Counted from the stretch's first letter, positions 95-10,260 are shown. The stretch is DNA of 10,933 bases from a virus (IMGVR_UViG_2634166457_000009), one strand, 5' to 3'. Notes: a model not told the origin generated them from the sequence alone. Made by a program: numbers and translations.

Positions 95-97
<3 letters not shown>
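1..97 (-). pseudogene. yeeJ: Downstream continuation of the yeeJ-like adhesin coding sequence, displaced by one frame relative to ORF 95..3682; continues past the window edge
   Basis: Reverse complement of 1..93 translates in the alternate frame to GIAITQANGEAHVTLKGKKAGTHTVTATLGN, the same Ig-like repeat pattern as inside the ORF (e.g. GVAIASLTGTLAGTHMITARLANSN). The main frame ends at TAA (97..95) immediately after an A4 run (plus-strand CTTTTC, 98..103). Confidence 0.6.
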
Positions 98-3682
<3,585 letters not shown>

Positions 3683-3873
3683 GCTTACCTTCCCTGAACG
3701 AGCTAACATAAATGCGCCCTTTCTAGCACAGCGAAAAAAAGTAAATCCTGATAGCAATATGATTGAAAATTAATAACTTTTCGTTAAGCAGTTTTGGGTG
3801 TGAGTTGCAAGAGGGGAGACTACTGAATTACTCAAGTTTTATAATCGAGGGGAAAATGGTGATGGCGTCCATA

Positions 3874-3994: not shown

Positions 3995-4070
3995 TGGCTC
4001 CTCTGACTGGACTCGAACCAGTGACATACGGATTAACAGTCCGCCGTTCTACCGACTGAACTACAGAGGA
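3995..4070 (-). tRNA. asnT: tRNA-Asn (anticodon GUU), 76 nt including CCA
   Basis: Reverse complement reads TCCTCTGTAGTTCAGTCGGTAGAACGGCGGACTGTTAATCCGTATGTCACTGGTTCGAGTCCAGTCAGAGGAGCCA, matching E. coli tRNA-Asn; anticodon loop CU-GUU-AA. Symbol asnT assigned from its position between yeeJ and mtfA. Confidence 0.95.
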
Positions 4071-4170: not shown

Positions 4171-4968
4171 TTAATGAACATTCGTCGCCGAAAACGAGTC
4201 TGTATCATTAGCGTGATGCAGTCTCTGCAAAGGATCTTGTTGATAAAATTGGCAGAAACGTTGCCACAATGAAGGGAAACGAGGAGCAAAAAGTTCTGGG
4301 GCGCTAAAGAAATATTCAGAAAGTACGGCAAAACATTCAGCAGGATCACTGGCAGCATAAGCATCAATGCTCGCCGCATTCTCGCCAACCAATTCGATTT
4401 CTTCCTGAATGTTGTTCATTGCAGCATGAAGATCGTGTTCCCAGCCAGCAACCTCACGCAACGGAATAAAGGGAACTCCGCTGGCGCGATCGCCGTTACG
4501 GGTGTCCAGCTTATGAGCGACTTCATGAATAATCAGGTTAAAACCAGAAGCATCAAAAGAATCTTGTATATCCAACCAGTTCAAAACGATAGGCCCTTGC
4601 TGCCAGCTCTGACCTGACTGAACAATACGTTGGTTATGCACCAGACCGATATCGTCTTCCCATTCATCATCGACCACAAATGGCGCAGGATAAATTAAGA
4701 CTTCATGAAAACCATCCAGCCATTCCAGTCCTAACTCCAGAACGGGCAGGCAAAATAGAAGTGCTATCCGGCAGCTTCTTAATGAATCCAGTTCAAAGCC
4801 CTGTAAAGGAACAAGCCGCTTTTGCTGTAAAAAACGTTCGGCAAGAGTGACTAATTTGCTTTGTTCCTGTTCCGTCAGACACGTTAAAAGGGGGATCGAT
4901 AGTGCTTCCTGCCAGGGAAGGGCAGTTTGATGTGCTGATTCTTGTACTTTCCAGGGCCACTTAATCAT
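4171..4968 (-). CDS. mtfA: MtfA (Mlc titration factor A), zinc-dependent peptidase, 265 aa
   Basis: ORF track 4171..5007 begins at GTG; the annotated-like start is ATG at 4968 ([14 protein letters not shown]...). HEVAHKLD HExxH metalloprotease motif present. Located between asnT and serU as in E. coli. Confidence 0.9.
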
Positions 4969-5061
4969 CGTTTTGCTCGCAAACTCGTCACTTGAACAAA
5001 ATTGCACGGACAGGGACTGTTAAAATGCCAAATTTCCTGGCATCATGGCAACCATCTGAAC

Positions 5062-5151
5062 GGAGAGATGCCGGAGCGGCTGAACGGACCGGTCTCGAAA
5101 ACCGGAGTGGGGGCAACTCCACCGGGGGTTCAAATCCCCCTCTCTCCGCCA
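5062..5151 (+). tRNA. serU: tRNA-Ser (anticodon CGA), 90 nt with long variable arm and encoded CCA
   Basis: GGAGAGATGCCGGAGCGGCTGAACGGACCGGTCTCGAAAACCGGAGTGGGGGCAACTCCACCGGGGGTTCAAATCCCCCTCTCTCCGCCA; anticodon loop CU-CGA-AA; class II tRNA. The two plus-strand ORFs overlapping it (4992..5177, 5002..5268) are artefacts. Confidence 0.95.
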
Positions 5152-5196
5152 AAATTCAATCATTTACACATCATTAAGTCAGTGACAAAAATCACA

Positions 5197-5227
5197 CTTG
5201 GAATTACTTGGAATATTTTCTTGGAAT
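5197..5227. repeat. Three direct repeats of CTTGGAAT (starts 5197, 5207, 5220), candidate arm-type integrase binding sites of attL
   Basis: aCTTGGAATtaCTTGGAATattttCTTGGAATatt; spacing 10 and 13 bp, immediately prophage-side of the tRNA-Ser 3' end and overlapping the last codons and stop of int. Lambda attP/attL P' arms carry tandem arm-type sites in this position. Confidence 0.4.
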
Positions 5228-6229
5228 ATTATCAGGTAACGGGACATCAAGTGTTGGTGAAACTTTAACCTTTCTGTCATAGATTAGCACTTGCCCTTCG
5301 GTTTTGTGACCAGAGAAAAGTTGCTTATCCCGGCTGCTTCCTTCATAGTCTGAAATTCCTTTCGACTTCAGATCATGAAAGGTGAAGTCGGTTAAAATAC
5401 CTGAAATTTTTCCAGCACGATTTCTTGCTTCTACCCACATTTCGTTAAAGCCTTTGTACATATATCGGTTGCCGTATTGATTGCTGATCACATAGGCAGA
5501 TTTTGGTAACTGTTTTGCTTTTTCGATCGCTGCCTGTAATCGTGGACTCCATGCTTTTATCTGTTTTTTTCCGGTTTTCCCTTGCTGGATGAATATCCCG
5601 TCGTTTCCAATCTGTTCCCATTTCAGCGATAACACATCGGAAACCCTCGCTGCACACAGATAGGCAATTTCCATTGCGATAAAAACAGGAAGAGGCGCAA
5701 CGCTTAATACTGCCTGGTATTCCTTGTCGGTTATATATCGTTCGCGGTTTTTGGCCTTGAATTTACTTACACCTGCACATGGGTTAGCCTTCACGTACCC
5801 TCGCTCATATCCCCAACTGTAAACACGGGACATGCTGCTTTTTTCATGGTTGGCTTGCGTTTTGCTCTGTTCCCCTCTTTTGTCCATGTATCGACGGATG
5901 TGTTCTGGTTTTATGGAATCCGCCGGTACCTTACCGAATACGGCAAGCAACTTTTTCTGATGTTGCAGATAATCTTTTTGTGTTCTTGGACTGAGGTCAC
6001 TGTAACAGGCGCTGGTGAGGAATTTTTCCCACAATCGACCGAATGTCATTGCACGATCACGATTATTTACAGTTTCCTCATACTTTTTCCATAAAGCAGC
6101 TAAACCATCCTTGATGGCGGTTAGTGTTACAGATTCTCTGGATGTTGGTTTCCATACATAACTATATTTATTTGGGTATACATTTGGAGGTAATTTTTCG
6201 TGTTCAGGATTTTTCCTTCGTCTTCCCAT
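5204..6229 (-). CDS. int: Lambda-family tyrosine integrase (site-specific recombinase), 341 aa
   Basis: N-terminus MGRRRKNPEHEKLPPNVY resembles the lambda Int arm-binding domain; catalytic-domain landmarks AARVSDVLSLKW (Arg), QQGKTGKK (Lys), FHDLK, SGHKTEG, VLIYDRK (Tyr). ATG at 6229..6227 overlaps the upstream gene's TGA by 1 nt. Gene abuts a tRNA 3' end. Confidence 0.95.
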   Translation of the reverse strand: MGRRRKNPEHEKLPPNVYPNKYSYVWKPTSRESVTLTAIKDGLAALWKKYEETVNNRDRAMTFGRLWEKFLTSACYSDLSPRTQKDYLQHQKKLLAVFGKVPADSIKPEHIRRYMDKRGEQSKTQANHEKSSMSRVYSWGYERGYVKANPCAGVSKFKAKNRERYITDKEYQAVLSVAPLPVFIAMEIAYLCAARVSDVLSLKWEQIGNDGIFIQQGKTGKKQIKAWSPRLQAAIEKAKQLPKSAYVISNQYGNRYMYKGFNEMWVEARNRAGKISGILTDFTFHDLKSKGISDYEGSSRDKQLFSGHKTEGQVLIYDRKVKVSPTLDVPLPDNIPRKYSK

Positions 6230-6432
6230 CAGATCGCACCAAAATTCGGCTCTACCTCGCGTGGTGGTAAAGTTTTATTGCAGGTAAATAGATCCCGGCT
6301 GACAATCGGTTTGCCACTACGATTGGTATAGAACGGAAGCCCGTTTTCCATTAACCATTTTCGCTGGTGGCTTGCATATTTGCAGCCCGTTAATATTAGC
6401 AATTCATCTTCGGTTAAAAATAAGCTGCTCAT
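6229..6432 (-). CDS. xis: Small excisionase-like protein (DUF4224-type), 67 aa
   Basis: MSSLFLTEDELLILTGCKYASHQRKWLMENGLPFYTNRSGKPIVSRDLF fits the LT.EL..LTG....Q..WL...G.PF...R.G.P.V pattern recalled for DUF4224 proteins found beside phage integrases; stop overlaps int start (TGATG), indicating translational coupling. Confidence 0.7.
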   Translation of the reverse strand: MSSLFLTEDELLILTGCKYASHQRKWLMENGLPFYTNRSGKPIVSRDLFTCNKTLPPREVEPNFGAI

Positions 6433-6490: not shown

Positions 6491-8932
6491 TTAAAAATCA
6501 GCCTGACTCGGGATCAGTTTTTGCCAGATAGCTGAAACGTATTTTGCCTGGTAACGAGCGTCATCAAGTGCATTATGGCGCTCACCTTCGAATGGGATAG
6601 CAGTTCTGGCATCGAAGTCTATGGCTTTCCCCAGCTCAACGATTGTGCGTACATCGCGATCGTTGCAGTAGCGCCACGGGCAGGGGATACCCTGTCGTTC
6701 GTATGAACGGCGTAAAATCACGTTGTCGAAGTTGGCCCCATTACCCCAGACCTGAACAAAAAATTCACCGGAGTTTTCGTCGATAAATTCCCGCAATTGC
6801 AGTAGTGCATCATCTAACGGGATTTCATCGGTCATAATGGCAGACTGCGCTTCACGTGATTGCTTCAGCCACCATTTAATGACGTCACGATCAATGACTC
6901 CGCCAGCAGTATCCAGATCGATGGTCTTGCTAAATTCCGGTCCCATATCTCCGGTTTGTGGATCGAAAAATATTGCGCCTATTGAGATAATCGGGGCATC
7001 GGGATTTTTTCCCATGGTTTCAAGGTCGATCATCAGATGAATCCCCGTTCTGCTGGTGGATGTGAGCTTATGATGACCATTCACCTTAATTAAGGGATCT
7101 GTCGACTCGCCAGTTTTATTATCGCTGGCGTGATGCTGATTGCCGCCAGGGTTCTCCTTGTGTGGATGTTCAGCGCCTTCCATTTCCTCCGTATCATTTT
7201 CCTGAACTTCAACCTGATTCTCTTCATCGAATGTTTCCTGGTATGTTGCGTCGCCCATCACCGCGCCACAATCAGGGCAGTTGCCGCCACCGCTCTGACC
7301 GCAGACGGTGCAGACTTTTTCCGGTTCCTGTTGCGCTACTGGTTCGGATTGTTTCGTTTCTGGCTCGTTTTGTAACGCATTTGGGCTGTTTTGTTCCGCT
7401 TTTTGGTCGTTCCGTTCCGATTCATGCTGGTTCTGGTTCACAGAATCGCGAGTCTGGATCCCCTTGACCCATTTCGGATCATTAGGGTCGCTAATCCCCT
7501 CAACAAATTCACCACGCGATACAGCAAGTAACTTATCGGCGTCAGGCTGGCTGATATTGGCTGCCTGCATAATTTTGTTTACTTCGTCAGCGGTGACTTT
7601 TACTTGGTTAGCGGAACTCACCTGCGACTGAGCATCCAGCGACTGCGCGTTCTGGCAATGTTCAGTTGTATCCGGTTCCATTGTTTCAGTTGTTGCCTGT
7701 TCACCTGCCATTGCGTCAGATGGTTGTGGTTTTTCTTCTTCTGTTTCACGCTCAGTAACCACCTCGCGGTTAATTTCTTCCAGGATATCTTTTTCCGGCG
7801 TATGCCGGGCAGCTGTGAGAGTTTCCTTGCTGGGGTTCTCGTGATCTGTTTCCGTCAAATAGGCGTTGATATACCCCTGAAGGCGTCCCGGGTAGTGATA
7901 AAATTCAGGGTGTGCGCTTCGGATAAGTGCAAAAATAGCGGCGCGGGAATAGTCCAGAATACCCGGGGTTGCACGAAGTGCTGCGGACCATTCTTTGAAC
8001 GGACTTTCTTTTTTCAGGACGACTTTTTTTGCGCGACGATAAACGCTGCCCGGAATTTCATAAATATTAAAATCCATCGGAAGTGTGGCTGCTGCAATCT
8101 CCACATCCAGTGTGTCGAGGGTGTGTACTAAATTCGGATTGCGATCGGTTTTGTTCCCACCGCCAGCATTAGCACCGGAAGCCGTGCGGGTGATGCGTGA
8201 AACACGATTTCCTTTCATCCACTCTTTTGTCAGCAGACCCCGATCGGTGTAGTCAGCGCCCAGGTATGCTTCGAAAAAAGCAGTCATCAGTCCCAGGTCT
8301 GAATTACCAGGATTAGGGAAAACTTTGTCCGTGTCACGAACCAGTTTGTGGAGATCGCGAATTTCCAGTGGTTCGAGTTGCGCAGCTTTATTTGAGATGG
8401 CCAGCGCGGTAACGGCGGGAAGTTTTTCATCCTGTGCGTTATGTAATGCGCGCAGTTCGCCCCGCGAAACGTGTGTGATCGGTTTTTCGCTGCCGTGCTG
8501 TGCCAGCCATCGAACAGGCAGAATCTGACCTGAAACCGGCAGGAGCATGTTCTCCTCAATCTCAGTCATGTCTTCGCCGTTGACGTTGGTATTGTCAGTG
8601 CTGGCTGGTTTGTCCTGAACAGAGGGCGAGGGTGCGATAAGTACCATTGTGATACCATCTTCCCCGCCTTTTTCGTATCGGTTGCAGAATTCGGTATCAA
8701 ACACGCCTTCCGGAGGAAGGTCATTCACAACGGGTAAATGGACGCGAACAGGTTTTTTAAAATCCTCTTCGTCAAATCCGGCATCGTCCATTGCGACAAC
8801 ACCGCGTGATATTGCAACCGATAATTTTTTTGCTGTGCGCCAGTAAAAACCGCCTTTAATCCCAAGACGTTTTCTGACTTTGTCATTTTTGGCTTCGTAA
8901 TATAGTGCAATTTCTTCTTTATCAGCGCTCAT
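6491..8932 (-). CDS. Large prophage exonuclease, 813 aa: RecE-like (exodeoxyribonuclease VIII-type) N-terminal and central region, C4 zinc-ribbon motif, acidic Q/E-rich linker, C-terminal DnaQ-like DEDDh 3'-5' exonuclease domain
   Basis: C-terminal motifs HLMIDLETMG (Exo I), VWGNGANFDNV (Exo II), ERHNALDDARYQAKY (Exo III, DEDDh). CTVCGQSGGGNCPDCG zinc ribbon. Segments such as NTNVNGEDMTEIEENMLLP and SRGEFVEGISDPNDPKWVKGIQTRD resemble Rac RecE as I recall it (not verified). ATG at 8932 with GAGG 9 nt upstream. Confidence 0.85.
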   Translation of the reverse strand: MSADKEEIALYYEAKNDKVRKRLGIKGGFYWRTAKKLSVAISRGVVAMDDAGFDEEDFKKPVRVHLPVVNDLPPEGVFDTEFCNRYEKGGEDGITMVLIAPSPSVQDKPASTDNTNVNGEDMTEIEENMLLPVSGQILPVRWLAQHGSEKPITHVSRGELRALHNAQDEKLPAVTALAISNKAAQLEPLEIRDLHKLVRDTDKVFPNPGNSDLGLMTAFFEAYLGADYTDRGLLTKEWMKGNRVSRITRTASGANAGGGNKTDRNPNLVHTLDTLDVEIAAATLPMDFNIYEIPGSVYRRAKKVVLKKESPFKEWSAALRATPGILDYSRAAIFALIRSAHPEFYHYPGRLQGYINAYLTETDHENPSKETLTAARHTPEKDILEEINREVVTERETEEEKPQPSDAMAGEQATTETMEPDTTEHCQNAQSLDAQSQVSSANQVKVTADEVNKIMQAANISQPDADKLLAVSRGEFVEGISDPNDPKWVKGIQTRDSVNQNQHESERNDQKAEQNSPNALQNEPETKQSEPVAQQEPEKVCTVCGQSGGGNCPDCGAVMGDATYQETFDEENQVEVQENDTEEMEGAEHPHKENPGGNQHHASDNKTGESTDPLIKVNGHHKLTSTSRTGIHLMIDLETMGKNPDAPIISIGAIFFDPQTGDMGPEFSKTIDLDTAGGVIDRDVIKWWLKQSREAQSAIMTDEIPLDDALLQLREFIDENSGEFFVQVWGNGANFDNVILRRSYERQGIPCPWRYCNDRDVRTIVELGKAIDFDARTAIPFEGERHNALDDARYQAKYVSAIWQKLIPSQADF

Positions 8933-9408: not shown

Positions 9409-9966
9409 TCAACGAGTAAATTTAAGTAACTGCTCTACGGTCATATTTTTAATTGCGCCCGGATTTACAAGAGTCCATCCCTGTTTTTCCAGATAAAAGC
9501 GGAAGGTATCCAGGGTGCAGACCATTGCGCCGTCAGGAACGGTTTCAGTGAATTCAACATTGCCGAATTTGTCGAAGTGAACAACCAGAGTGCGTCCATC
9601 TCCCGGAATAATTTTGTCAGCGGGTGGGGTATTATTCTGACGCAGCTCTGCCTCCATGCGGTCGAACTCAGCGATGTAGGCCTCTTTGAATGCAGCGGCT
9701 TTTTTACCAGTGAAGCCCATCACCAGGAAAACGAAGCCGTTTTTGGTGATTTGGAACATTGGGAGTTTGCGTCCGGTTGAGTCGGTGTATTCGCTCGACA
9801 CAAAATTGTGCTCAGTGAATTTTGCTGAACAGTCCAGATTGCGAATTTTATCCAACACTCGTTCGTGGCGTTTGCCAAAGAACTCGGCGATCGCAACAGA
9901 CGTAGTGACAGCGCGACCATTTTCGATGGTTACGTCAGGGTGAGAAAGGACAGGGATAGTAGCCAT
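9409..9966 (-). CDS. rha: Rha-family phage regulatory protein (Phage_pRha domain), 185 aa
   Basis: RAVTTSVAIAEFFGKRHERVLDKIRNLDC...NFVSSEYTDSTGRKLPMFQITKNGFVFLVMGFTGKKAAAFKEAYIAEFDRME matches the conserved Rha core. Start placed at ATG 9966 (MATIPVLSHPD...) with GAGG 8 nt upstream; the track ORF extends to 10260 but that extension contains a terminator-like hairpin. Confidence 0.8.
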   Translation of the reverse strand: MATIPVLSHPDVTIENGRAVTTSVAIAEFFGKRHERVLDKIRNLDCSAKFTEHNFVSSEYTDSTGRKLPMFQITKNGFVFLVMGFTGKKAAAFKEAYIAEFDRMEAELRQNNTPPADKIIPGDGRTLVVHFDKFGNVEFTETVPDGAMVCTLDTFRFYLEKQGWTLVNPGAIKNMTVEQLLKFTR

Positions 9967-10127
9967 GATGGCAGCCTCGTTAGTGAATTTGATTAACTCA
10001 CCACCGGAGGTAGCAATCTCATGGGTGGTGAGACGTACAGGGTTGCTACAACCGGTCACTAACGAACCCGGCCAGTCTTGCGACTGCCCCGCACGCCCCA
10101 CCATAATTTGAATGTGGCTGTGCATTA

Positions 10128-10160
10128 CGCATAAAAAAACCGCCTGAGCGCGGTTATGCG
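10128..10160 (-). terminator. Terminator-like hairpin with U7 tract in the leader upstream of rha
   Basis: Minus strand CGCATAA-CCGC-GCTCAG-GCGG-TTTTTTT-ATGCG: inner CCGC/GCGG stem (extendable by two A-U pairs) followed by seven U; outer arms CGCATAA/TTATGCG can also pair, leaving a 5-U bulge. Short stem, so weak. Confidence 0.3.
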
Positions 10161-10260
10161 CGTTAGTGAACATCGGGGTAGCAATCCCGGCACCCGTTTT
10201 ATGAGGTGCAGGTGCACTATAATTCCACCCGTTCTGGTTTTCAATAGCTACATTCAACAT

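Follow-up and report, generated by a model that had tools for sequence, protein, structure and literature searches.

The question raised by this locus is whether a tyrosine integrase that carries lysine in place of its second catalytic arginine (Arg II, the arginine of the box II motif H-x-x-R) is crippled, leaving its prophage locked into the chromosome, or belongs to a lineage in which lysine does the work. An earlier note on this DNA had offered both possibilities. The window, i.e., the whole stretch of 10,933 nucleotides that was analyzed, was compared with sequence databases, complete genomes, structural models and published work on recombinase mutants. Taken together, the gene very probably encodes a working integrase, that of a lambdoid prophage which has inserted into the 3' end of serU, and it belongs to a gammaproteobacterial clade with lysine at Arg II (hereafter Lys-type; relatives with arginine are termed Arg-type).

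The prophage locus and the integrase active site

The window was assigned to the E. coli chromosome around serU together with the left end of a lambdoid prophage; features are listed in Table 1. The tRNA-Ser(cga) gene was intact, with 53 nt between its end and the int stop codon, and in E. coli genomes with an empty site the match to the window ended at about 5151-5159. Of 5426 complete E. coli genomes, 1094 carried the element at serU and the others lacked it. The exact integrase protein was found as KNA40577.1 of E. coli M114, and its 90% cluster included Shigella and Salmonella members. An orthologous prophage in strain XDL (98.7% identical) was 41.9 kb long and complete-looking, with 62-nt direct repeats at both ends: the 3' part of serU that forms the att core occurred again 41.9 kb away, adjoining yodB. 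The corresponding far end of the element lies beyond the window.

Table 1. Features of the locus, with positions counted in the window unless a locus is named.
Feature	Position	Strand	Remark
Inverse-autotransporter gene, large	95-3757	minus	
tRNA-Asn	3995-4070		
mtfA	4171-5007	minus	Peptidase_M90
tRNA-Ser(cga) (serU), integration target, intact	5062-5151	plus	ARAGORN
att core, 62-nt 3' part of serU	5090-5151		second copy at the other prophage end
Three direct CTTGGAAT repeats (5197, 5207, 5220)	5197-5227	plus	candidate arm-type Int sites (P' arm)
CTTGGAAT copies inside the opposite XDL junction	L006 8056-8063 and 8121-8128		
int, 341-aa lambda-type (arm-binding, heterobivalent) tyrosine integrase	5204-6229	minus	ORF
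Y317, nucleophilic tyrosine	5279-5281	minus	lambda Y342 equivalent; invariant
H308, His III	5306-5308	minus	lambda H333 equivalent; nearly invariant
S289 (TCG), private A289S	5363-5365	minus	lambda S312 equivalent
K288, Arg II position (box II)	5366-5368	minus	lambda R311 equivalent; invariant
K218, catalytic Lys of the beta2-beta3 hairpin	5576-5578	minus	lambda K235 equivalent; invariant
R195, Arg I, box I YLCAAR-VSD	5645-5647	minus	lambda R212 equivalent; invariant
C192 (Arg I minus 3)	5654-5656	minus	lambda T209 equivalent
xis-like gene, 67 aa, DUF4224, overlaps int start	6229-6432	minus	PF13986, E = 1.9e-15
813-aa exonuclease	6491-8932	minus	
283-aa ORF, N-terminal Ash-family domain fused to Rha phage regulatory domain	9409-10260	minus	

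The xis-like ORF also matched the 'excisionase' family PHROG 1266 (E = 3e-21), and the DUF4224 protein encoded beside int is likely to be the directionality factor. In the 813-aa protein, a long linker of acidic, low-complexity sequence connected an N-terminal region of the exonuclease VIII (RecE-like) type to a Rv2179c-like 3'-5' exonuclease domain at the C terminus. Two small ORFs between the exonuclease and Rha/Ash genes resembled DUF1482 and dicB of the relatives, and the Ash/Rha gene itself was missing at the matching place in XDL.

The int product matched PF00589 with 45.2 bits (cut-off 27.1, E = 1.2e-11), as well as SAM-like/central integrase domains and the PHROG 1 integrase family (E = 9e-55). 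NCBIfam held no model specific to the Lys-type family and returned only sub-threshold Xer matches. For the fold predicted with AF2 (pLDDT 85.8), the PDB structures that matched best were those of full-length lambda Int, and the top Foldseek matches were lambda Int, Tn1549 Int, XerA, an integron integrase and Cre, each with a probability of 1.00. The protein aligned to full-length lambda Int from residue 1 (MGRRR..LPPN.Y), with an N-terminal arm-binding domain preceding the core-binding domain, and a profile of 60 relatives covered residues 1-343 of lambda Int (E = 1.4e-26).

Read on the minus strand, positions 5366-5377 are CATGATCTGAAG (CAT GAT CTG AAG), encoding H285-D286-L287-K288. The HDLK that the earlier note had reported in place of H-x-x-R was thus confirmed by translation, and also by phmmer against lambda Int in the PDB, in which TFHDLKS of the query stood opposite TFHELRS with high posterior (H285 = H308, K288 = R311), and by alignment to the profile. 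When lambda Int was aligned to the 60-relative profile with hmmalign, R212 fell on R195, D215 on D198, K235 on K218, H308 on H285, R311 on K288, H333 on H308 and Y342 on Y317, in agreement with all residues named in that note (the Arg of AARVSD, the Lys of QQGKTGKK, H285, K288, H308 and Y317). A profile alignment, which the note had proposed among its checks, placed K288 and not an arginine in the box II column, and FHDLKSKGISDY did indeed contain no arginine. Y317, R195, K218, H285 and H308 all occupied canonical tyrosine recombinase positions; the arginine of H-x-x-R is what the protein lacks. Lysine at Arg II is a documented minority state, and membership of the PF00589 family is not excluded by it.

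Between serU and int, and overlapping the last int codons, the three CTTGGAAT repeats were located 46-76 nt from the tRNA end (3 copies in the window versus 0.49 expected). The 50 kb examined in XDL held only two further copies, on the inner side of the att junction at the other prophage end and at distances of 40 and 105 nt from it. The count over the 50-kb locus was not significant (5 versus 2.3 expected); only the placement was striking, and it was noticed post hoc. The 3+2 layout resembles the P' and P arm-type sites of lambda, and we infer, likewise post hoc, that the repeats are candidate sites of this kind.

Conservation of the lysine and selection on int

Each of the 120 nearest homologues (55-98% identity; the best 120 from 5.8 billion proteins) had the motif HD[LI]KAK, so that close homologues do share H-x-x-K, and because all of them do, K288 is neither a sequencing error nor a private mutation. 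In an alignment of 60 diverse Lys-type sequences (31-59% identity to the query, mean column identity 34%), five columns and no others were invariant: R195, K218, H285, K288 and Y317. The second possibility of the earlier note, a lineage tolerating lysine, was supported: throughout a clade that is large and old the lysine does not vary, and it is conserved to the same degree as the tyrosine nucleophile.

When representatives of 50%-identity clusters were searched exhaustively with HMMER, 81 of the best 121 full-length proteins had lysine and 37 had arginine, and the Arg-type representatives were more distant from the query than the Lys-type ones. The arginine codons AGA and AGG are one transition from the lysine codons AAA and AAG. 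Across 80 species loci the lysine was encoded by AAA in 48 and by AAG in 32; as this set was retrieved by a Lys-containing pattern, the split shows synonymous turnover only. When one genome for each bacterial species was scanned by pattern, 306 loci proved to encode relatives with the Lys motif, distributed over Enterobacterales, Aeromonas, Vibrionales, Alteromonadales and one Pseudomonas. The Pseudomonas and Burkholderia phages LESphi2, KL3 and Magia were considered as clade members and placed outside the clade, arginine being present in their integrases. A literature search found no explicit description of an H-x-x-K integrase clade.

Clade integrases were located 55-160 nt from a convergent tRNA gene, in one constant geometry, in 38 of the 60 species genomes examined, the targets being Leu(taa) in 27, Ser(cga) in 6 and Ser(tga) in 5. 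The Leu(taa) target is part of the glyW-cysT-leuZ cluster. Since three tRNA genes serve as targets, the clade has changed targets repeatedly while the lysine was retained. Prophages of the Lys-type family, Sp14 of O157:H7 among them, occupy serU, serT and leuZ, and their hosts are E. coli, Shigella, Salmonella, Klebsiella and many other Gammaproteobacteria.

Selection on int was estimated from two pairwise comparisons. Against the O157:H7 orthologue, dN/dS was 0.054 at a dS of 0.33 (57 synonymous and 14 non-synonymous changes), and against strain XDL it was 0.099; these ratios point to a gene under strong purifying selection and not to one in decay. RefSeq/PGAP marks int copies of 93-99% identity as 'frameshifted' (L005 3180-4227; L006 48747-49797), and a pseudogene reading was considered on this account and rejected. 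The 341-aa frame was uninterrupted, and the length forms of 341, 352 and 360 aa differed in the number of 8-mer repeats, which alters the last few codons only (window 5204-5230). Because the 341-aa frame ends in a tail (..NIPRKYSK) that is kept down to 67% identity, the flag was attributed to an annotation artefact of repeat number, apparently confined to the variable tail beyond residue 335 and well past Y317. Flags of this kind on Lys-type int genes appear unwarranted.

Activity of enzymes with lysine at Arg II

In a survey of >12,000 tyrosine recombinases by Gibb et al., Arg II was arginine in 99.1% and lysine in 0.5% (PMC2943603). Cre R292K was active in vivo and in vitro but had a ligation defect, with accumulation of the covalent intermediate (PMC2943603), and vaccinia TopIB R223K had about 10% activity (as cited in PMC2943603). 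Both have the same substitution at the same position as the present enzyme and kept activity, and the view in the earlier note that substituting this arginine is generally strongly deleterious was too strong where the replacement is lysine. Because Cre R292K has a ligation defect, lysine is nonetheless no free substitution in every scaffold. Natural enzymes with lysine at this position have also been assayed: Pal_Y-Int_1 (Integrase-On-Demand) gave site-specific plasmid integration in Pseudomonas putida, in 18.7% of recipient cells, and a second natural Lys-type integrase, Pal_Y-Int_2, was inactive (PMC12884075). The Cre and TopIB mutants differ from the clade in that they are Arg-adapted scaffolds with reduced rate or ligation defects, whereas the lysine of the clade is an evolved, conserved state. 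The clade is a natural, well-sampled scaffold with a fixed lysine at Arg II, and its comparison with Cre R292K could bear on why lysine suffices.

Within the clade, FHD[LI]KAK was found in the deposited genomes of phages ST64B, ZF40, mEp390, KpF5, Evi and Chris1. Pectobacterium phage ZF40, of which gp02 is 50% identical to the window integrase, is recorded as temperate with the source 'induced lysogen'. Excision of ST64B has been quantified by attP qPCR (PMC12455584), and the known defect of this phage is a frameshift in a tail-assembly gene, not in int (PMC5322425).

A closely related prophage is Sp14/CP-933U of O157:H7, which in strain Sakai occupies a site between yodB and tRNA-Ser(cga) (PMC8190617), where the element also lies in the window and in XDL. 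This paper carries the link of Sp14 to serU; a text match to 'serU' in the Sp14 induction study proved to be the word 'serum' and was discarded. The O157:H7 serU integrase (sequence read from strain Z1833, not from Sakai itself) was 95.9% identical in protein sequence and had HDLK, with the same locus and the same int-xis-exonuclease order; it differed by a 1-codon deletion (Y24) and by A289 instead of S289. The window integrase is its orthologue. Asadulghani et al. judged the Sp14 integrase intact and detected the circular attP form by PCR after mitomycin C (PMC2669165). The circles were scarce and were seen only once the strain had been induced, with replication of the region (PMC2669165), and a related integrase of the same strain acting in trans could have contributed to them.

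Further evidence came from IMG/VR. Of 75 stretches in which the 31-nt repeat block of the int 3' end occurred, the prophage (attL) configuration was seen in 61. Five contigs (L112, L118, L130, L148, L153), one of them from a metagenome, had the phage right end, the 62-nt core and int in that order, an attP-type junction, with int 98% identical to that of the window. Such a junction indicates an excised circle or a tandem lysogen, both of which require Int; an assembly mis-join across the 62-nt repeat could in principle also produce it. Two other contigs (L140, L157) had a third sequence of another kind upstream of the core.

The record of 'Escherichia phage vB_EcoM-606R7', with an int of 98.5% identity, was considered as a free phage and set aside. 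Because it includes host flanks (mtfA, tRNA-Asn and yersiniabactin genes), it is a prophage prediction and not a virion sequence, and it gives no proof of activity. The records ON470580.1 (vB_EcoM-606R7) and ON470583.1 (vB_EcoS-689R5) each hold part of a genome.

The earlier note had named, as evidence against impairment, close homologues that share the lysine and are demonstrably active; such homologues are essentially provided by the Sp14 circles, temperate ZF40 and the excision of ST64B. The lysine is thus present in phages that are viable or that excise, and it is a conserved working state of a large integrase family, not a defect.

Readings of the lysine and comparison with lambda

With this evidence the window integrase is probably an ordinary, functional enzyme. 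Y317 would attack the scissile phosphate, with R195, K218, H285 and H308 in their usual catalytic roles. For K288 and for the activity of the window allele we infer the following: the epsilon-ammonium group of the lysine would supply the positive charge and a hydrogen bond to the non-bridging oxygen in place of Arg II, and with this job done, integration and excision between attP and serU would proceed normally, the DUF4224 protein being the likely directionality factor.

The best-surviving alternative, although an unlikely one, is that the active site of the clade was re-tuned as a whole (lysine at Arg II, Cys/Ala for Thr/Gly in box I, and R230) and that cleavage, ligation or regulation are altered relative to lambda. 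In most tyrosine recombinases box I is T-G-x-R. Here it is Y-L-C-A-A-R, in which C192 replaces the Thr and Ala193 the Gly. Cysteine at 192 was found in 120/120 nearest homologues and in 88% of Lys-type representatives (71/81), whereas Thr was found in 95% of Arg-type representatives (35/37), so that mixed states were few; R230 was present in 83% of Lys-type versus 24% of Arg-type sequences. The shift of the cleavage/ligation equilibrium in Cre R292K is also consistent with re-tuning. Against it, proteins with lysine at Arg II could also have T, L, A, V or M as residue 192, and the association of K288 with C192 may stem from one ancestral event and be phylogenetically confounded. Given these mixed states, and a neighbor-joining tree in which the placement of the Arg/Thr subgroup was without bootstrap support, independent co-evolution of K288 and C192 was not established.

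A more specific form of this idea, that lysine together with the box I Cys/Ala defines a mechanistically distinct subclass with a shifted equilibrium or an oxidation-sensitive thiol near the active site, was considered improbable. Induction or excision of ST64B, a clade member, has been reported specifically under peroxide/NO stress, and this response is most simply explained by SOS induction.

It is less probable still that the clade is active and the window allele is weakened by A289S or by other private changes (A72T, V166I, E333D). The serine of FHDLKSK was private to the window allele, Ala being found in 120/120 nearest homologues and in all cluster members examined, and the exact protein was present on only 3 contigs. 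In more distant Lys-type integrases residue 289 is H, K, G, R or I, Ala to Ser is a conservative change, and the ORF is otherwise intact. Because lambda Int has Ser at this place (R311-S312), A289S is expected to be tolerated.

The least credible reading, in which Arg-to-Lys cripples catalysis and a decaying int leaves the prophage locked into serU, could draw on the near-universal arginine at Arg II, the covalent intermediate of Cre R292K, the scarcity of Sp14 circles and the RefSeq pseudogene flags on near-identical genes, but it conflicts with a lysine that is invariant clade-wide to the same degree as the Tyr, Arg I and hairpin Lys, with the low dN/dS, with the same lysine in deposited phage genomes of which at least one is temperate, with excised or attP-type forms for integrases of 96-98% identity, with an element whose presence at serU varies among E. 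coli genomes and which is found also in Shigella and Salmonella, and with 'frameshifts' that touch only the tail. The impaired, locked-in prophage of the earlier note was thus not supported, and H-x-x-K is no valid criterion for calling Lys-type integrases defective.

The functional integrase favored here is an ordinary finding: published work already covers the phenomenon itself, the prophage orthologue and the fact that lysine is tolerated at Arg II, and the current understanding of site-specific recombination is unchanged. The six deposited phage integrases (ST64B Sb28 and those of ZF40, mEp390, KpF5, Evi and Chris1) were 47-59% identical to the window protein and shared FHD[LI]KAK and YLC[AC]AR with it; they differed in their C-terminal tails and partly in their tRNA targets, and mEp390 has an annotated attP with a tRNA-Leu(taa)-like fragment. 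Lambda Int (PDB 1Z1B, 1Z1G, 5J0N) has the same arm-binding, core-binding and catalytic architecture from residue 1 to the nucleophilic Tyr, with identical counterparts in the window integrase for R212, D215, K235, H308, H333 and Y342, and in both systems a small xis upstream overlaps int and short motifs are repeated on either side of the core. The two proteins differ in overall sequence (about 20-25% identity), in R311 versus K288 and in T-G-Q-R versus C-A-A-R, and the attB of lambda lies between gal and bio, whereas here it is the 3' end of a tRNA gene with a 62-nt core.
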